The notes under the pieces are model-generated. The model was not told the DNA's origin. It saw only the letters and a program-made list of their open reading frames with translations, and did not search any database. This document shows, in pieces, positions 43,232-54,746 of a stretch of DNA of 64,000 bases; the stretch's first letter is position 1, and the number at the start of each line of letters is the position of its first letter. Source of the stretch: Eubacteriales bacterium (GTDB lineage: Bacteria > Bacillota > Clostridia > Oscillospirales > CAG-382); the NCBI GenBank assembly GCA_045596605.1, contig JAZOCR010000143.1:3743-67742 (forward strand), written 5' to 3'. Both the position numbers and the translations under genes were made by a program.

Positions 43232-43232
43232 G

Positions 43233-43616
43233 TCTTGACCTGCCAGTAAGCCGTGTTCTGTATCTGGCAATCATCTATCTTGTCCTTACGTTACCGTAAG
43301 GCTCTGTGCCACTTGCGGCGAGCCGAGCAAGCTTTGCACCGGAACCGGTGCGTGCCACCTCGTGTTGCTTCGGATAGGGTTTACAGGAGTCCTGTGTTAC
43401 CATAGGACCCGGTGAGCTCTTACCTCGCCTTTCCACCCTTGGCTCTGCGAATGCTCGCTTTCATACCTCCATAAAGAAGTAGTAGCCGGTATATCTCTGT
43501 TGCACTCTCCCTGGGGTCACCCCCGGCGGACGTTATCCGTTATCCTGCTCTGTGAAGCACGGACTTTCCTCACTCAGACCAAAAAGGTCCTTTGCGCGAT
43601 TGCCTTGACAGGTCAG
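43233..43616 (-). ncRNA. rnpB: RNase P RNA
   Basis: The reverse strand contains GAGGAAAGTCCG, AGGGTGGAAAGGCGAGGTAAGAGCTCACCG, GTAAACCC, AGATAGATGATTGCC and ACAGAACACGGCTTAC in the canonical order. P1 pairs TGACCTGTCA (5' end) with TGGCAGGTCA (3' end). It has its own promoter and terminator. Confidence 0.92.
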
Positions 43617-43738: not shown

Positions 43739-44200
43739 TTACTTAAGGAAGGGAAGGCTTCTGATGATAACGGGTTCAACCGCCTTGCCCATACAAGCCT
43801 GAACGAGAGTGATGATCTGTACTACTCCGAGTACGCCCATTGCAATAACGCCAACTATCGGAACGATAATTGTCCAGCAAAGAATTGCTATAACAAGTCC
43901 GAGAGCCCAGCTTGTAACGAAGAACTTCATAGCCTGTCTTGCGTGGAAGTCAACGAAAGCGGAATTGGGTGCACAGATTTTTGCAACGAGTATACCGAGT
44001 ATGCTTGCAATGTAGGGAAGAAGTGCCCACACCTTGTTGTCGGAAATGTCCTTTGCGTCAAATTCTGCTGTGCGGTCGTGGGGGTTGTACTTGGGTGCGT
44101 AAGGCTGCTGCTGATAGCCGTTCGGCGCATAGCCCTGATTGGGGTTGGGGTTCTGGTAGTACTGCTGATTCTGCTGATTCTGGTTCTGCTGATTGTCCAT
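43739..44200 (-). CDS. DUF4870-like membrane protein with a Q/N-rich N-terminus
   Basis: The N-terminus MDNQQNQNQQNQQYYQNPNPNQGY is followed by 3-4 TM helices and the FHARQA motif typical of DUF4870 (from memory). Confidence 0.7.
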   Translation of the reverse strand: MDNQQNQNQQNQQYYQNPNPNQGYAPNGYQQQPYAPKYNPHDRTAEFDAKDISDNKVWALLPYIASILGILVAKICAPNSAFVDFHARQAMKFFVTSWALGLVIAILCWTIIVPIVGVIAMGVLGVVQIITLVQACMGKAVEPVIIRSLPFLK

Positions 44201-47428: not shown

Positions 47429-47613
47429 CACTTCTTTCAAATTTTATGCCGAAAGTGTATGATAATTGTAAATTATTGTAAATAATGCAAAAATTGTTAT
47501 ATACAAAACGGAAAAAGTATGTTATAATGAATCGGGATAATGTGCATAAGATTTTGCGAGCATGACAGCGTACTTAATTATGCACCATATTTTCGGAAAG
47601 GAATGATGTCTTC

Positions 47614-48492
47614 GTGGCAGAAAAATATAAAGATAAAAAGCCATACGGTAAAAAGGGAGCACCCTACGGCAAACCCTTTGGCGCAAAGGATTCAAAGCCT
47701 TATGGCAGACGAAAACCCTCATCAAAACCTGAGAGGGAAGAAAGAGAAAACAGTGAAGAGCTTTCCAACGGCTCAGTACCCGGCAGAAATGCAGTCCGTG
47801 AGCTTCTGAAGTCCGGTCGTGATATTGAGAAGATATTCGTAAGAGAGGGCGACAGAGAGGGCTCCATAACAGTCCTTGTTGCACAGGCACTTGAACGGGG
47901 CATACCTGTCATAGAGGTAGATAAAAACAAGCTTGATGCACTCTGCGGATACGAACAGCATCAGGGAATAGTCGCAATAGCCTCCGAAAAGGAGTACGTT
48001 ACTCTTGACGAGGTGGTAAGGATAGCCGAGGAAAGAGGAGAAAAACCGCTCATCGTAATATGTGACGGAATTTCCGACCCCCATAACCTCGGAGCAATAA
48101 TCAGATGTGCCGAGGGCGCAGGGGCACACGGAATAGTGCTTCCCAAAAGACGTGCCGCAGGAATTACACCGGCGGTGGTTAAGGCGTCAGCCGGCGCAAC
48201 CGAGCACATAGCGGCGGTCAAGTGCTCAAATATCAGCGATACCATACGTAAGCTTAAGGATATGGGCTTCTGGATATTTGCGGCAGAGGCAGACGGAACA
48301 AGCTATACCGAGGCAGATTATAATTGCCCGTGCGCACTTGTTCTTGGAAGCGAGGAGCACGGCGTGTCGGATATAGTCAAGAAAAATTCCGATTTTATAG
48401 TTTCAATACCTATGAAGGGGAAGGTCAATTCCCTTAACGTCTCAACTGCGGCGGCGGTGCTGCTTTATGAGGCAATAAAGCAGAGAAGCTGA
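47614..48492 (+). CDS. rlmB: TrmH-family 23S rRNA 2'-O-methyltransferase (RlmB-like)
   Basis: SpoU substrate-binding and methylase domains (DPHNLGAIIRCAEGAG, LVLGSEEHG, SLNVSTAAAVLLYE). GTG start. A K/P/G-rich N-terminal extension carries KPYG-like repeats. Confidence 0.85.
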   Translation: MAEKYKDKKPYGKKGAPYGKPFGAKDSKPYGRRKPSSKPEREERENSEELSNGSVPGRNAVRELLKSGRDIEKIFVREGDREGSITVLVAQALERGIPVIEVDKNKLDALCGYEQHQGIVAIASEKEYVTLDEVVRIAEERGEKPLIVICDGISDPHNLGAIIRCAEGAGAHGIVLPKRRAAGITPAVVKASAGATEHIAAVKCSNISDTIRKLKDMGFWIFAAEADGTSYTEADYNCPCALVLGSEEHGVSDIVKKNSDFIVSIPMKGKVNSLNVSTAAAVLLYEAIKQRS

Positions 48493-48536: not shown

Positions 48537-50912
48537 ATGCAGACAAACGGAAACACCTCACCGGAGGGCGCAAAGAACCAAATTTCTCTCGACAGCATCA
48601 TAAACGAATTTGAAAATAACGGCACTGCGGACGATTCTCAGAAAAAAATAAATCCTATGGATAAGCTGAACGAAATGTTCAGAAAGCAGGAAGAGGATCT
48701 GGATTGGCTCAACGATTTCGTGCTTGAAGCGGAAGAAGGAGAAGAATCCGATGCAGAGGAAGAGCAGGAAAGTGTCAGTGAGATAATTGCTGAAAATGCC
48801 GAAGTCGAAGAAATACACCAGGCAACGGACGAGGAAATATCCGAGGATATTACTCAGGCAATAGCCGAAGCAATAGCAGGAGAGGAGCTGCCGCCGGAGG
48901 AATACCCGGATAACGACGGGGCTACAAGACAGTTCAATGCTGTAAAAGAAGCATCAGATGAAGAAATAGGCTTTGAGATGTTTGAAAATGATACGTCAGA
49001 GCCCGAAGAAGAAACAGAAGTGGCTAATGAAATAGAAGATGACGTTTCGGACGTACAAGAGCCGGATGAGGTAGACGGCTATCTTACCAAGCTTTTCGGA
49101 GGCTCAGACGATGATTTTTCCGAGGACGAAAACGTCGCCGTGGCAGAAAAAAAGCCGGAAAAGAAAAAGTCCGAGCATAAAAAAATAGCCAAAGAGCTCG
49201 GAGTGTACGAGGAAATAGATATGTCGGATCCGGGCGCCGTGAACGCCGGAAAAAACCGATACTATACAAAGAAGCGCAATGCTCTTGTTTCTCTTTTCTG
49301 CGTAACCCTTTGTATGCTTGTCGGATTATATGTAGAGCTTGCACCCATAGCATCGCTTCCGCATTTTGAAATTCTTTCACCGGCAAATCCTGCCGTATAT
49401 GCGCTTGTGGCTCTTCAGGTTCTTTGCTTTGGTGCAATATGCATGCTCGAAAGCCTTGAAAGAGGTCTTTTCGCAATTGTTGACAAGAGATTTTCGCCGG
49501 CGTCATGTGCGCTTGTAATTGCTGCTGTGAGTGCGCTTCAGGCAGTGCTTACCGCAATTTTCAGCACTGGCTCAGATGGAGTAAGACTTTTCTGCTCGGT
49601 AGGACTTCTTGCACTGTTTATGCTTTCCGCATCTGATTATCTGCGTGCATCTGCAGATTACAAAGCCTATAAAATTGCAAGCTCCACCTCAAATAAATTC
49701 GGTGCCTTTGAAATAGCAACAGATTCTGCGGAATGTGAGCCCTTTTCTTCACACATTGACCTTGAAGAAGCAAAGGCGATAACTGTAAAAAAGGGCGCAG
49801 TTTACGAGGGATTCGTTGAAAGAAACGAGAGAAGACCTGAGGGCGAGAAAAAGCTTGGAAGACTTGCAGGCATTGTGGCTATAGTGGCACTTGTTGTAGG
49901 CGTGTTTATGGCTGTTGCCACCAAGAGCGTTTACGATGGCTATACCAGCGCAGCAATTGTGCTTATTTCCTCACTCCCCATAAACATATTCTTTGTGTCT
50001 GCACTTCCAAAGTACATAGCGGCAAAGCAGGGTAAGCAAATAGGCGCCGCACTTATAGGTCAGAACGCAAGCGAGGAGTACAAAGGACTGTCAGTGGTTA
50101 CCTTTGAAGATACCGAAGTGTTCTTGCCTAAGGACGTGCGTATTTCAAGCATAAAAACCTATAGTGGAATGGCACTTGACGAAGCCGTGGTTCTTATGTC
50201 AAAGATTTACGGTAAAATAGGCGGACCACTTTCAAAAATATTCGCAAAAATGGTGGATACTGAAACCGGAAAATCCGAGGTTGAGCTTGAAAAGGTTTAT
50301 CCCGACGCTCTTTGGGTAAAGGTGGACGGAAAGAACGTATGTCTTGCAACCTCCTCGTATCTTTCTGCAAACGGAATAAAAATAATATCCGACAGCGTTG
50401 ACACAGCCTTCGAGCAGTCTCACGGAAGTATTCTTTATTTGGTTTCGCTAAATAGAGTAATGGCAAAATTCTACATAAAGTACTCTGTAAATCCTAACTT
50501 TGAGAGAACTCTCAGAGAGCTTCACGAAGCGAACCTCTGCGTTGGTATAAAAACACTTGACCCTTGCATAAACAACGACCTTGTATTCGGTTGCCTTGAA
50601 AGAGCAAACTATGCACTCAGCGTTGTGAAAGGCTCAGGCGAGGAGGATATCCCGGGCGTATGTGAAACTGTAAGCTCCGGAGTAATTGCTCTCGGAAGCG
50701 TTCATAACTTCCTTGAAATGCTGCTTCTGTGCGAGCGCACCGGAAGAAACGTCAAGATAAATAACGTAATAAAGCTTATAAGCACCTTGCTTTGCCTTGT
50801 GCTTTCAACGGCTTTCGTTTTGTCAAACAGCGCACTTAACGTAGTATTCTGTCTGATAATTCAGATTTTCTGGCTGCTTCCTGTAGCGGTTATTTCCTAT
50901 TTCAATAAATAA
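48537..50912 (+). CDS. Degenerate P1B-type ATPase homologue with a long acidic N-terminal region
   Basis: A ~240-aa D/E-rich N-terminus precedes the TM helices. The segment SSLPINIFFVSALPKYIAAKQGKQIGAALIGQNASEEYKGLSVVTFEDTEVF is colinear with CopA CPC..ATP..GILIK..FDKTGTLT. TGDN is replaced by TLDP, and the actuator region is very short. Confidence 0.6.
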   Translation: MQTNGNTSPEGAKNQISLDSIINEFENNGTADDSQKKINPMDKLNEMFRKQEEDLDWLNDFVLEAEEGEESDAEEEQESVSEIIAENAEVEEIHQATDEEISEDITQAIAEAIAGEELPPEEYPDNDGATRQFNAVKEASDEEIGFEMFENDTSEPEEETEVANEIEDDVSDVQEPDEVDGYLTKLFGGSDDDFSEDENVAVAEKKPEKKKSEHKKIAKELGVYEEIDMSDPGAVNAGKNRYYTKKRNALVSLFCVTLCMLVGLYVELAPIASLPHFEILSPANPAVYALVALQVLCFGAICMLESLERGLFAIVDKRFSPASCALVIAAVSALQAVLTAIFSTGSDGVRLFCSVGLLALFMLSASDYLRASADYKAYKIASSTSNKFGAFEIATDSAECEPFSSHIDLEEAKAITVKKGAVYEGFVERNERRPEGEKKLGRLAGIVAIVALVVGVFMAVATKSVYDGYTSAAIVLISSLPINIFFVSALPKYIAAKQGKQIGAALIGQNASEEYKGLSVVTFEDTEVFLPKDVRISSIKTYSGMALDEAVVLMSKIYGKIGGPLSKIFAKMVDTETGKSEVELEKVYPDALWVKVDGKNVCLATSSYLSANGIKIISDSVDTAFEQSHGSILYLVSLNRVMAKFYIKYSVNPNFERTLRELHEANLCVGIKTLDPCINNDLVFGCLERANYALSVVKGSGEEDIPGVCETVSSGVIALGSVHNFLEMLLLCERTGRNVKINNVIKLISTLLCLVLSTAFVLSNSALNVVFCLIIQIFWLLPVAVISYFNK

Positions 50913-50946: not shown

Positions 50947-51762
50947 ATGGTTGAAAAAATTAAAGAAATACTTTCAAATCTTGCTTCTATAGCAATGACC
51001 GCAGGCGTGCGTCTTGTCGGTGCAGTGCTTATCGTAGTTATAGGCTTTGTCGTTATAGGCAAGCTTACCAAATATTTTAAAAATCACAGACGAATATCAA
51101 AGGTTGAAAAAAGTGTAGTAGACTTTCTCTCAAGCTTTGTTTCGGTAGCACTTAAGATTGTAGTCGTACTTACCGCAGCAAATTACCTCGGTGTTCCTAT
51201 GACCAACCTTGTGGCAATACTCGGCTCATGCGGACTTGCAATAGGTCTTGCACTTCAGGGAAGCCTTGCAAACCTTGCGGGCGGAATTATGATACTTATA
51301 TTCAAGCCCTTCAAGGACGGAGATTATGTTTCAGTAAACGGACTTGACGGAACAGTTACAGGAATAACCATTCTTTATACTTATCTTAAAACCCCCGACG
51401 GCAAAACAATAGTTATTCCCAACTCAACCACGTCAAACTCCTCTGTTATAAATTACTCAACAGAAAAGTACCGCAGAGTTGATATCCCCGTGTCTGTGTC
51501 ATATAAGAGTGACGTAGAACAGGTTAAAAAGATACTTCTCGATTTTGCAAAGTCGGTACCTTACGTTGAAAAAGACCCGGAATGTGCGGTGGTTATCTCT
51601 GCATATGCAGACAGCTCTATTGATTTTACAATAAGAGCCTGGACAGAAAGCTCCCATTACTGGGATGTAGCAGGTGCAATTAACTACGGACTTCAGAAAA
51701 CGCTTGCAGATAACGGAATTGAAGTGCCTTATCCTCAGCTTGACGTTCATTTTGATAAATAA
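50947..51762 (+). CDS. Small-conductance mechanosensitive channel (MscS family)
   Basis: 3 TM helices plus the MscS beta domain (GDYVSVNGLDGTVTGITILYTYLKTPDGKTIVIPNS). Confidence 0.88.
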   Translation: MVEKIKEILSNLASIAMTAGVRLVGAVLIVVIGFVVIGKLTKYFKNHRRISKVEKSVVDFLSSFVSVALKIVVVLTAANYLGVPMTNLVAILGSCGLAIGLALQGSLANLAGGIMILIFKPFKDGDYVSVNGLDGTVTGITILYTYLKTPDGKTIVIPNSTTSNSSVINYSTEKYRRVDIPVSVSYKSDVEQVKKILLDFAKSVPYVEKDPECAVVISAYADSSIDFTIRAWTESSHYWDVAGAINYGLQKTLADNGIEVPYPQLDVHFDK

Positions 51763-51980: not shown

Positions 51981-52469
51981 TTACAGATAGGAAAAAAGTA
52001 GTCTGTTACTGTGTGAGTCCATGTTTTGCACATCAGGTATCTCGTATCTGTTATCGTTTGAATCTCTGATCATAACCCTGTTACCGCGCAGATGCTTGAT
52101 GTCACTGTGCCTGTTACGAATATCAAAGGTTATCTCACCGCGATCTGTTTCAACAGTCCACTTGAGAACCCCGAATTTATCAACACATTTGAGAACCTTT
52201 TTTATTCTGGGTATCATATAATACTCATTAAAGCATCCCTCAATTGCACGGCGTGATTCTTCGTCCATTTCTTCGAGGTCACGGATATATCCTACCTCTT
52301 TCTCGTGGCGATCAAGCAAGGTTATATACATCGTGTGGTTTGTGATAGGAAAAAGCTTTCTTGGCTCAAGGTCCTCATACACCGTTCCGTCTTTTAGTAT
52401 AAGACGAATTGAATAAAGGCTCGTGCGTTCTATCTTTCCCATGTATTTATCAATATATATTCTTCCCAT
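51981..52469 (-). CDS. DUF1854 domain protein
   Basis: 162 aa directly downstream of an ABC exporter gene, the usual DUF1854 context. The family call is from memory of the pattern (LFPIT...YI...D...E). Confidence 0.75.
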   Translation of the reverse strand: MGRIYIDKYMGKIERTSLYSIRLILKDGTVYEDLEPRKLFPITNHTMYITLLDRHEKEVGYIRDLEEMDEESRRAIEGCFNEYYMIPRIKKVLKCVDKFGVLKWTVETDRGEITFDIRNRHSDIKHLRGNRVMIRDSNDNRYEIPDVQNMDSHSNRLLFSYL

Positions 52470-52478
52470 TATTTTACC

Positions 52479-54746
52479 TCACTCAAAGTTCTCTGTACGC
52501 TTTGACTCGGCTATTTTATCAGCCATAGACTGTATCTCAACGAGCTTGTAATATTTACCCTTAAGCGCCATAAGCTCTTCCGGAGTACCGCATTCAATAA
52601 TGGAACCGTTGTCTATTACAACTATCTTATTTGCCTTTGAAAGAGTTGAGAGTCTGTGCGCTATCATTATAGTAGTTCTTCCGGCAATAAGCTTTTCAAT
52701 TGCCTCCTGAATAAGGTGCTCTGTTTCTGAGTCTACAGACGCCGTAGCCTCATCAAAAACAAGCATTGTAGGGTCGCGGAGCATGGCACGCGCAATAGAT
52801 ATACGCTGGCGCTCACCGCCTGAAAGGCCCACGCCTCTCTCGCCAAGCACCGAATCGTATCCATCGGGCTGGCGGATGATAAATTCATGTGCGTTAGCGA
52901 TATCTGCGGCATTTATTACCTGTTCTACCGAAAAGCTGGTATCACCATACGCAATATTATTGTATATCGTGTCATGGAACATCTGCGGCTCCTGCTGAAC
53001 ATAACCAATTCGCTCTCTGTAATAGTGCATATCTATATCTTTGATATCTACACCACCAATAGTGATAGTACCTTCATAATGATCATAGTAACGCAAAAGA
53101 AGATTTATCAAAGTTGATTTTCCAGAGCCGGTTGTTCCTACTATTCCTACTATATCACCAGGCTCAATGGTGAGATTTATATTTTTAAGTACCTTTTTAG
53201 TCCTGTCAAAAGAAAAGCTGACGTTTTTGAACTCTATTCTTCCACCCATATCCGCATCAGTATTACCACGGCCAAAATCGTGTTCAGGCTCAGCATCAAG
53301 TATATCCATTATACGCTCTACGGAAGCTATTGCTCCTTGAACAGAGTCGGAAAGATTTGCAAAGAAGTTTACAGGCTCATAAAACATTGTTGCATAGGAA
53401 ATAAATGATACCAGAAGGCCAACCGAAATCGTACCGGAGTTTCCAAGTTCAATGCCGTTTATTACAAGAGTACCACCAAGCGCCCATATTATAACGCTTC
53501 CGCAGCTCATAAGGCAGTTTACGATAGCAGGATACGCATTAAGTATCTTACCTGCCTTGGTATTGATAATACGCCACTCTTCTACTGTGCTTTCAAATTT
53601 TTCTGCCGACCTTTTCTCGTTGGCAAAAGATTTTACAACTCGTATTCCGGGAATAGTATCCGTGAGCACAGAGGTGACAGCAGAAGACCTTTTCCAGATG
53701 CGTCGGTAAAAAGGAGCGATCTTCTTTCGGAACAATCGTGAACCGATAACTACTATCGGAACCGGAACAAGCGAAAAAAGAGTCAATTTCCAGTTTATGA
53801 AAAGCATAACTACGATGATGCCGATAAGCTTGAAAAACTGCACGACAACTTCCTGTGTCATTCTGAGCATAAACGCCTGAATTGTAGCTGTGTCACTGCT
53901 TATGCGGTTTATTACCGAACCCGTAGAGGTTTTATCGTAAAAACGCATAGGTAAGTACTGCGCTTTTTCATAAACGTCAATTTTCAGTCTGGAAATTATT
54001 TTATTTCCCGAAACACGAAGCATATATCCTCGCACACCGGCAAGAAGCCAGTGTAACACATGTGTTGAAACAAGCAGAATTACAACAACAGAAAGTGCGT
54101 ATTTGTCTTTGTTTGGCAAAATTTCATCCACCATAGATTTTGTAAGAAGTGGAGGAAGCATTGCCATTGCTGTGGTAAGAACTGAAATAATTACAGAAAT
54201 AACCAGTATCAGTGTTTCCGGCTTTATATACTTCACAAGACGACTGAAAAGCTTTCCTTTTTTCATGCAGTACACACAGGGAGCACCGGGAGAAGAAAGC
54301 GTTCTTCCGCATTTAGGACACACAGAAAGCATCTTATCATAGACCGAACTAATCATATCAAGTGCCACTTCTTGGTGAACACCGTCGCGAATATCCTTAA
54401 CGTAAGTAACGAATGCATCGCAAAGTGATGTAACCGTGAAAGTAAATCTGAAAATATCCACATAATTTTTTCCGTCGAAGGAAATACGCATAACCGCATT
54501 TCCGTACATACGTTTATTATATATTTCTTTAACATCTGAAAATGTGTATTTTTCAGAGCATTCATTATCGGTAAAGCTGTAGGTAAAAAAATGGGTTGAT
54601 GTAGCAAGAAGTATGTTCTGACCATACTTTGCGTTCTTTGACACTTCGCCCACTATCCCAAAAAGTATCGGCTCGTCAGATAAAGTAAGCAATTTATCAA
54701 TCTGTTGGTCGGTTAGATTTTTATTGATCAAAAAAATTTTTTCCAT
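52479..54746 (-). CDS. ABC exporter (fused permease-ATPase) with an extra N-terminal domain and zinc ribbon
   Basis: Walker A GTTGSGKST, signature LSGGERQR, Walker B LVFDEATS and a 6-TM exporter domain. It is preceded by about 150 aa of soluble domain and CPKCG..(12)..CVYC. Confidence 0.92.
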   Translation of the reverse strand: MEKIFLINKNLTDQQIDKLLTLSDEPILFGIVGEVSKNAKYGQNILLATSTHFFTYSFTDNECSEKYTFSDVKEIYNKRMYGNAVMRISFDGKNYVDIFRFTFTVTSLCDAFVTYVKDIRDGVHQEVALDMISSVYDKMLSVCPKCGRTLSSPGAPCVYCMKKGKLFSRLVKYIKPETLILVISVIISVLTTAMAMLPPLLTKSMVDEILPNKDKYALSVVVILLVSTHVLHWLLAGVRGYMLRVSGNKIISRLKIDVYEKAQYLPMRFYDKTSTGSVINRISSDTATIQAFMLRMTQEVVVQFFKLIGIIVVMLFINWKLTLFSLVPVPIVVIGSRLFRKKIAPFYRRIWKRSSAVTSVLTDTIPGIRVVKSFANEKRSAEKFESTVEEWRIINTKAGKILNAYPAIVNCLMSCGSVIIWALGGTLVINGIELGNSGTISVGLLVSFISYATMFYEPVNFFANLSDSVQGAIASVERIMDILDAEPEHDFGRGNTDADMGGRIEFKNVSFSFDRTKKVLKNINLTIEPGDIVGIVGTTGSGKSTLINLLLRYYDHYEGTITIGGVDIKDIDMHYYRERIGYVQQEPQMFHDTIYNNIAYGDTSFSVEQVINAADIANAHEFIIRQPDGYDSVLGERGVGLSGGERQRISIARAMLRDPTMLVFDEATASVDSETEHLIQEAIEKLIAGRTTIMIAHRLSTLSKANKIVVIDNGSIIECGTPEELMALKGKYYKLVEIQSMADKIAESKRTENFE

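Follow-up and report, generated by a model that had tools for sequence, protein, structure and literature searches.

The stretch of DNA analyzed here (the window) comprises 64,000 nucleotides (nt) from Eubacteriales bacterium, of the Clostridia (assembly GCA_045596605.1, contig JAZOCR010000143.1, positions 3,743 to 67,742 of the forward strand). At window positions 48537 to 50912 lies a gene for a membrane protein of 791 amino acids (aa), flanked by an rlmB gene upstream and a gene for an MscS-type channel downstream. An earlier note on this DNA, made by eye from the letters and their translations, had taken the product for a homologue of the heavy-metal (P1B-type) ATPases with degenerate catalytic motifs; we refer to it as the pseudo-pump. 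Its open reading frame (ORF) is uninterrupted, as the earlier note had stated, and a putative AGGAAG ribosome-binding site (a consensus match) stands 8 nt before the ATG at 48537. The gene contains the following features, with the evidence for each in parentheses.

48537..50912, + strand: catalytically degenerate P1B-type ATPase homologue ("pseudo-pump"), complete ORF, 791 aa (ORF list, hhalign, Foldseek, ratio of nonsynonymous to synonymous substitutions [dN/dS])
48537..49211, + strand: polyanionic, predicted-disordered cytoplasmic N-terminal extension, aa 1-225, replacing the HMA metal-binding domains (composition, predicted local distance difference test score [pLDDT])
49065..49100, + strand: short conserved arm motif D-x-x-D-x-x-L-[ML]-x-x-F-G (DEVDGYLTKLFG, aa 177-188) (column counts)
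49278..49640, + strand: helices MA, MB, M1, and M2, aa 248-368, of which MA and MB are the P1B-specific helices (hydropathy, hhalign)
49662..49832, + strand: remnant of the actuator domain, aa 376-432, folded as a beta-hairpin module of two strands and lacking TGES (hhalign, model)
49857..50009, + strand: M3-M4, aa 441-491, with L480-P481-I482 replacing the metal-binding CPC (alignments to LpCopA)
50022..50750, + strand: homologue of the phosphorylation and nucleotide-binding (P/N) headpiece, aa 496-738, under the strongest constraint in the protein (LpCopA and CopB P/N domains aligned)
50103..50123, + strand: degenerate phosphorylation motif F523-E-D-T-E-V-F529, for V/F-D-K-T-G-T-L in pumps (three alignments, same register)
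50220..50231, + strand: G562-G-P-L565 replacing the N-domain SEHPL (alignment to LpCopA "sehPL")
50463..50483, + strand: hinge strand A643-K-F-Y-I-K-Y649, in which Y649 takes the position of the Asp in the "DPxK" hinge of pumps ("AKFYIKYsvn" versus "ALLVVEDPIK")
50553..50564, + strand: T673-L-D-P676, the counterpart of TGD[N/S] (HAD motif II) (three alignments)
50757..50900, + strand: M5-M6, aa 741-788, with Q776 and W779 at the CopA metal-binding Met/Ser of MxxSS (hhalign)

Searched singly, the protein reveals little of its descent. Pfam returned zero matches, the cutoffs of E1-E2_ATPase and Hydrolase not being reached, and phmmer against the PDB gave a spurious low-complexity match and otherwise nothing relevant. 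NCBIfam TIGR01525 scored 20.9 bits (E 1.4e-4) against a cutoff of 346, and 41 of 57 family members match that model, each below its cutoff. Such searches being uninformative, the P1B relationship had to be sought with profiles. A profile of 23 homologues matched Legionella CopA (LpCopA; PDB 3rfu) at E 6.8e-12, and one built from 57 diverse homologues matched it at E 2.6e-17; when the latter was run against 5.8 billion sequences, the matches listed included genuine pumps with HMA, E1-E2_ATPase, and Hydrolase domains at E 1e-28 to 1e-11. Aligned by hhalign with an alignment of genuine P1B pumps, the family gave a probability of 99.7% and E 8.4e-27 over 535 aligned columns, colinear from MA to M6.

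P1B pumps have eight helices, MA, MB, and M1 to M6, with cytoplasmic inserts after M2 and M4 (PMC8880997). The pseudo-pump has this eight-helix topology by hydropathy and hhalign: eight membrane segments are arranged in a 4+2+2 pattern, at residues 248-270, 285-305, 320-343, and 350-368, then 441-463 and 469-491, and finally 741-760 and 766-788. In the MA/MB region, G310 aligns at the "G...NMD" motif of genuine pumps. The full-length AlphaFold model is confident at residues 230-790, with pLDDT below 50 across most of 1-225, and a core-only model (aa 226-791, from a 32-sequence alignment) reached a mean pLDDT of 89.9 and a predicted template modeling score of 0.85. The P/N headpiece is modeled with a Rossmann-like strand/helix pattern at a pLDDT of about 90. 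Foldseek against the PDB placed P1B pumps (ATP7B, LpCopA, ZntA, CadA, HMA4) at all of the first 14 ranks, with E down to 2.8e-15 and TMq of 0.53-0.57; KdpB and the P2/P3 pumps rank after them. The colinearity of the C-terminal part with heavy-metal P-type ATPases, which the earlier note had seen by eye, is thus recovered by profile searches, hhalign, and Foldseek, and the profile searches whose failure would have told against it did find the relationship. By profile and by structure the best matches are the P1B-1 copper-exporting ATPases (CopA; LpCopA, PDB 3rfu/4bbj; ATP7B), which have the same fold, with MA-MB-M1-M6, P and N domains, and the proline kink of M4.

A working pump is defined by its invariant catalytic Asp, the TGE loop, MA/MB, and xPC, and the Mg2+-binding GDGxND with the Lys region before it, the TGES loop, the His of SEHPL, and the phospho-Asp are described as essential for the pump cycle (PMC8880997). 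In the pseudo-pump the register of these motifs is identical in three independent alignments (the 23-homologue profile, the 57-homologue profile, and hhalign). E524-D-T-E-V takes the place of DKTGT, so that Lys, Gly, and Thr are all lost; the assignment of E524 to the phospho-Asp position fits because the first P-domain strand, beta1, ends at residue 524 in both models. CPC of M4 aligns with L480-P481-I482, which keeps the Pro alone, and the A-M-x-x-S-S of M6 has become I-Q776-I-F-W779-L (hhalign "AMLISS" versus "IQIFWL"). At the N-domain motif S-E-H is replaced by I-G-G, with Gly at the ATP-binding His, and the counterpart of TGD[N/S] keeps Thr and Asp while its Gly and Asn/Ser are replaced. 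Two further elements are deleted rather than mutated: about 35 template columns covering the Lys region and MvGDGiND (HAD motif IV) have no counterpart in the pseudo-pump, and about 60 actuator columns including lTGES fall on gaps in the hhalign alignment. What is left of the actuator is a remnant of about 55 residues, with strands at 387-393 and 413-423 modeled at pLDDT above 83.

Most of the motif changes that the earlier note had listed therefore stand, including DKTGT to EDTEV and TGDN to TLDP, and some need amendment. It was right that CPC is lost and misplaced the register, reading SLP where the aligned residues are LPI with a conserved Pro; it rightly saw no GDGxND, which is deleted and not a degenerate motif; and it rightly saw that the actuator is reduced and its TGE gone, the remnant being not the short loop it described but a confidently modeled beta-hairpin module of about 55 residues. 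Its statement that every catalytic motif is degenerate holds for the most part and is slightly overstated, since T673, D675, the M4 Pro, and an Asp at the phosphorylation position or next to it are kept throughout the family. On these alignments, the pseudo-pump has lost the elements needed for the E1-E2 phosphoenzyme cycle: the DKTGT context, GDGxND, TGES and most of the actuator, the His of SEHPL, and the Cys of CPC. Set against CopA, it is without HMA domains, has LPI for CPC, EDTEV for DKTGT, GGPL for SEHPL, and Gln/Trp for the M6 Met/Ser, and lacks GDGxND and TGES by deletion; it adds a polyanionic disordered N terminus, and no copper-homeostasis genes adjoin it. Judged in this way, it is a homologue and not a functional member of the P1B ATPases, a predicted catalytically inert descendant of CopA-like pumps.

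Together with its relatives the pseudo-pump forms a large family without a name, known from uncultured gut Clostridia. When 1.84 billion representatives at 50% identity were searched exhaustively with a profile, 4,198 matched at E<=1e-3, of which 3,008 reached E<=1e-10 and 1,969 reached E<=1e-30. The family size is approximate, since the weak end of the 4,198 may include genuine pumps; each of the best 150 matches is full-length and above 338 bits. Motifs and alignment columns were counted in 173 family proteins. DKTGT, CPC, GDGxND, and SEHPL occur in none of them, and GGP[LIMV] occurs in 148. Instead of the pump motifs, other positions are conserved from end to end of the core. These are E267 (80%), L293 (90%), Q294 (86%), and G310 (95%) in MA/MB; F378 (90%), K387 (91%), and F426 (87%), with S382-S383, G425, and R429, as family-specific residues of the actuator remnant; and P481 (97%) and P491 (92%) in M4, where the residues flanking P481 are aliphatic or small and never Cys. 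The headpiece keeps G508 (96%), D525 (87%), F529 (94%), A643 (90%), and K644 (87%), the replacement of SEHPL keeps G562 (88%), G563 (92%), P564 (88%), and L565 (94%), and Y649 is present in 172 of the 173. At the TGD counterpart T673 (80%, with Ser in a further 13%), D675 (98%), and P676 (96%) are conserved, and in M5-M6 Q776 (88%), W779 (83%), P782 (69%), and S749 (60%).

The gene is under strong purifying selection, in its P/N domain as strong as that on the neighboring rlmB. Against an 88%-identical orthologue (locus L020; Nei-Gojobori method, synonymous divergence dS about 0.65), the gene as a whole has a dN/dS of 0.10; the value is 0.19 for its acidic tail, 0.069 for the core, and 0.044 for the P/N domain, compared with 0.047 for rlmB and 0.059 for mscS. 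The domain that looks most degenerate is therefore the most constrained. The fold, the loss of motifs across the 173 proteins, and dN/dS together uphold the earlier note's view of a conserved pseudo-enzyme that keeps its membrane scaffold and is no decaying gene, while the functions which that note suggested (channel, sensor, or anchor for the acidic domain) are candidate roles; close orthologues retaining DKTGT or TGDN, which would have pointed the other way, were looked for and not found.

All named sources are metagenome-assembled genomes, labeled Clostridia, Eubacteriales/Clostridiales, Oscillospiraceae, and Ruminococcaceae and largely from gut and rumen; this broad taxonomy rests on the source names, the scan of genome collections having reached close relatives only. 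Among 30 sampled clusters there was no cultured host. "Hypothetical protein" is the sole annotation given to family members, and Pfam, NCBIfam, PADLOC, and PHROG hold no curated family that covers them. The lack of PADLOC and PHROG matches also led us to reject an affiliation with defense systems or phages. In a divergent sub-branch (P0023, P0024, P0131, P0155, P0166, and P0174) the phosphorylation site reads D-A-x-[ED]-L-F; the canonical position holds Asp, the Lys position is taken by Ala, and the GGP-like motifs are weaker. At the loci of known context (L006 and L007), this sub-branch too sits after rlmB. P0174, of 678 aa, was considered as an evolutionary intermediate and rejected: it is without all of the motifs and represents a further degenerate branch.

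The former phosphorylation site appears not to have been erased but to have been turned from D-K-T-G-T into an acid-rich loop beside the kept T-x-D. Position 524 is Asp in 80 proteins (46%), Glu in 45 (26%), Asn in 12, and Ala in 11, the rest being Ser, Gly, or Gln, and the Lys position, 525, is Asp in 87%. The pairs found at 524/525 are DD (59), ED (45), DA (18), ND (12), AD (11), SD (8), and GD (6), so that essentially every member has Asp at one or the other of these positions, where strand beta1 ends. Position 527 is Glu in 92 and Asp in 44 (acidic in 79%). From these columns we infer a pocket formed by [D/E]524-D525, E/D527, T673, and D675 that may bind a cation or a basic group.

The second conspicuous feature of the family is its N-terminal arm. 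As the earlier note had described, and as composition and predicted disorder confirm, residues 1-240 are D/E-rich and stand where the HMA domains would be: 31% of them are acidic (39% over residues 61-200), with a net charge of -57, and the other 551 residues of the protein carry no net charge. In 172 members, the stretch that precedes MA is 326 aa long at the median (about 200-600 in general, up to 660); its acidic fraction is 0.26 and its net charge -50, again as medians. The charge is below -10 in 169 and positive in none. The pooled arms contain 16% Glu, 11% Asp, 0.8% His, and 0.1% Cys, and so little His and Cys argues that the arm is no soft-metal-binding substitute for the HMA domains. 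Two short motifs are conserved in a sequence that is otherwise not. D-x-x-D-x-x-L-[ML]-x-x-F-G, with column counts of 68 for D177, 77 for D180, 86 for L183, 84 for F187, and 86 for G188 (167-168 of the proteins aligned), is modeled as a short helix at 180-186; E-[YF]-T-[DS]-x-x-Q stands directly before MA. The longest N-terminal extensions contain no Pfam domains, and no tandem DNA repeat underlies the acidic region.

The earlier note had placed the gene between rlmB and an MscS channel gene, which is correct. The features around it are as follows.

47500..47528, + strand: candidate operon promoter, the best sigma-70-like match, TATACA-17-TATAAT with TG, upstream of rlmB (10/12 consensus matches; consensus match only)
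47614..48492, + strand: rlmB, for the 23S rRNA Gm2251 2'-O-methyltransferase (TIGR00186, 237 bits versus a cutoff of 160; Pfam SpoU_sub_bind and SpoU_methylase)
50947..51762, + strand: gene for an MscS-type mechanosensitive channel, 34 nt downstream, whose presence as a neighbor is clade-specific (Pfam, NCBIfam)

An RlmB-type gene lies directly upstream, on the same strand, at all 18 loci that could be assessed (L014 was left out of the count at a contig end). The adjacency extends to lineages whose pseudo-pump core is 23-31% identical to that of the window, and the spacing ranges from -4 (an overlap) to +59 nt. RlmB itself changes far more slowly than the pseudo-pump: a core identity of 64% goes with an RlmB identity of 93%, and core identities of 23-31% go with RlmB identities of 48-63%. 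A consensus-type scan of the window found no convincing terminator between rlmB, the pseudo-pump gene, and mscS, and the first two form an operon-like pair. Downstream, the neighbors vary (MscS, an EF-G paralogue, a radical-SAM/DUF2344 pair, or a divergent sigma factor). MscS follows in part of the closest clade only: it is missing in some relatives above 55% identity and absent in L008, L009, L012, and all divergent loci. We therefore rejected MscS as a functional partner, and the link to osmotic stress at which the earlier note had hinted is weakened. The one genomic partner that is conserved is rlmB, to which that note gave no special attention.

The RlmB of the window begins with a basic tail of about 55 aa (47614-47780, + strand; KYKDKKPYGKKGAPYGKPFGAKDSKPYGRRKPSSKPERE) that is rich in Lys/Arg and probably disordered, whereas RlmB proteins of the size found in Escherichia coli and Bacillus subtilis are without it. 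Tails of 36-73 aa are present at 7 of 10 loci (the window, L001, L004, L005, L018, L019, and L020) and absent at L006, L016, and L017; a role as obligate counterpart of the acidic arm is not supported by that distribution. In one divergent lineage (L004, 7652-10230, and L019, 6965-9552) the pseudo-pump gene is followed by an overlapping or abutting Radical_SAM_N2 gene and a DUF2344 gene, and in the lineage of L016 and L017 by an EF-G paralogue and an ALGX-domain gene.

On balance, we lean toward an explanation in which the pseudo-pump is an inert P1B descendant that acts as a membrane scaffold or receptor, with an acidic pocket and an acidic arm that capture cationic partners, possibly RlmB or the 50S subunit. 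Its most likely function, we infer, is that of a non-pumping membrane scaffold or sensor that presents the arm, with a possible link to RlmB. The protein would not pump, and its transmembrane core would serve as an anchor, the former ion site being filled by Pro, Ser/Asn, Gln, and Trp. The rigid headpiece would be a binding module built around the acidic pocket, for a cation, a basic ligand, or a partner, and the long arm with its one short helix motif would be a membrane-tethered device for the electrostatic capture of cationic partners. Arm and headpiece might then bring basic RNA-binding proteins of the translation machinery to the membrane or buffer them there; candidates are RlmB, basic-tailed at many of the loci, and 50S assembly components. 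A connection to RlmB and large-subunit biogenesis is favored because rlmB is the sole conserved neighbor.

Several points weigh against this explanation. Its weakest step is the RlmB/large-subunit link, for which the evidence is synteny: the adjacency could reflect co-expression or inherited gene order with no physical or functional link, we know of no membrane connection of RlmB, a soluble enzyme, and the basic tail is absent in 3 of the 10 RlmB partners. No fusion of the pseudo-pump with RlmB was seen among 253 sequences. The proposed geometry of the acidic pocket derives from alignments and secondary structure, and the roughly 46% of members that keep Asp exactly at the phosphorylation position may retain some residual, non-canonical phosphorylation. 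The size of the family, as said, is approximate at its weak end.

The same pocket and arm could instead make the pseudo-pump a cation sensor, buffer, or passive conduit, in which they bind Mg2+, Ca2+, or polyamines and the core senses or passes these without ATP, in the service of ion or osmotic homeostasis. In keeping with this are the conserved acidic residues clustered where pumps are phosphorylated, an arm rich in D/E and nearly devoid of His and Cys, the conserved polar residues within the membrane (E267, Q294, S/N483, and Q776), the helix-breaking P481, and the MscS gene directly downstream in the window and some relatives. However, even within the clade of more than 55% identity that gene can be missing from the neighborhood, as it is in every divergent lineage; the loci examined have no conserved neighbors that serve metal or ion homeostasis; and the strict pairing with rlmB is left unexplained. 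Moreover, W779 and the aliphatic residues at the ion site of the pump look more like a plugged site than a pore. We think this explanation possible but rather unlikely.

It is considerably less probable that the pseudo-pump is a dead paralogue that modulates the activity or localization of a live P1B ATPase or another transporter. Pseudo-enzymes that regulate their active relatives are a general precedent, and the whole P1B scaffold is kept here, including the MA/MB platform helices. Yet copA, copZ, csoR, or other P-type ATPase genes lie near none of 20 loci, where the conserved neighbor is rlmB, and a family that is 64% identical where RlmB is 93% evolves too fast for a tightly co-evolving subunit. 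Slightly more doubtful still is a non-canonical enzyme, in which Asp at 524/525 together with T673 and D675 would support either phosphorylation, with ATP or a small phosphodonor as the source, or hydrolysis, to power the transport of some substrate. An Asp is indeed essentially always present at 524 or 525, T673 and D675 are 93-98% conserved, and P/N is the most constrained domain; against this, the GDGxND strand, the preceding Lys region, and the TGES loop are deleted, the His of SEHPL is Gly in 92%, and about a quarter of members have N, A, S, G, or Q at position 524. Finally, a recent pseudogene or mis-called ORF, that is, a broken and decaying copA, has only the missing motifs in its favor and is refuted by the conservation data: the ORF of 791 aa is intact, omega is 0.10 at dS ~0.65, the structure model is of high confidence, and thousands of clusters share these motif changes and have gained conserved motifs of their own (GGPL, Y649, Q776/W779).

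The nearest precedent known to us for a P-type ATPase-derived segment without functional motifs is FUPA family 24 (mycobacterial CtpH/CtpI; TC 3.A.3.24), very long proteins with functional motifs in the C-terminal half only (PMC3573892). In those proteins a live pump carries the dead module as a fused part, whereas in the pseudo-pump this module makes up the whole protein, with a large family of its own, an acidic arm, and synteny with rlmB. Chan et al. are said to have described the N-terminal half of CtpH/CtpI in 2010 as a type I ATPase that lost its function. Transceptors such as yeast Snf3/Rgt2 and Ssy1 combine a non-transporting transporter fold with a long cytoplasmic extension that recruits partners. 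They may resemble the pseudo-pump in architectural logic, as a functional analogy only: they are eukaryotic, and the folds are unrelated (MFS/APC versus P-type ATPase). Inactive HAD-fold pseudo-phosphatases, such as the FCP1-like domain of Tim50, keep a Rossmann-like HAD-type domain as a binding module after the loss of catalytic residues; unlike the pseudo-pump, they are soluble or single-pass, belong to a different HAD branch, and have no P-type membrane domain. Full-text literature searches found no published work on a stand-alone dead P-type ATPase lineage or on an rlmB-linked membrane protein.

Few membrane enzymes are as well understood as the P-type ATPases, and thousands of clusters that keep the pump scaffold under selection of housekeeping strength imply that the fold must have a second, non-pumping use. 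A bolder version of the scaffold explanation, in which the pump scaffold has become a membrane hub that couples rRNA modification or ribosome biogenesis to the membrane, and the family would be the first recognized stand-alone pseudo-pump family derived from P-type ATPases, strikes us as speculative, with the chances clearly against it. Were it true, the polyanionic arm and the former phosphorylation pocket would capture RlmB or 50S assembly factors or proteins in gut Clostridia. The pairing with rlmB and the universal polyanionic arm are concrete, testable leads, and defining the family would close a gap in the annotation of rumen and gut Clostridia, where its members are abundant and named only as "hypothetical proteins."

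Some further features of the window were noted. The only RNA element found near the gene, 5 kb away, is a bacterial class A RNase P RNA (43232-43615, - strand; full-length match, 228.7 bits). At 43739-44200 (- strand), a 153-aa ORF has a low-complexity N terminus rich in Gln, Asn, Pro, and Tyr (MDNQQNQNQQNQQYYQNPNPNQGYAPNGYQQQPY...), followed by hydrophobic, membrane-like segments. An ABC exporter-type gene (51981-54746, - strand; 755 aa, ABC_membrane and ABC_tran) encodes about 170 additional N-terminal residues, among which are two Cys-x-x-Cys pairs (CPKCGRTLSSPGAPCVYC); a DUF1854 gene follows it.

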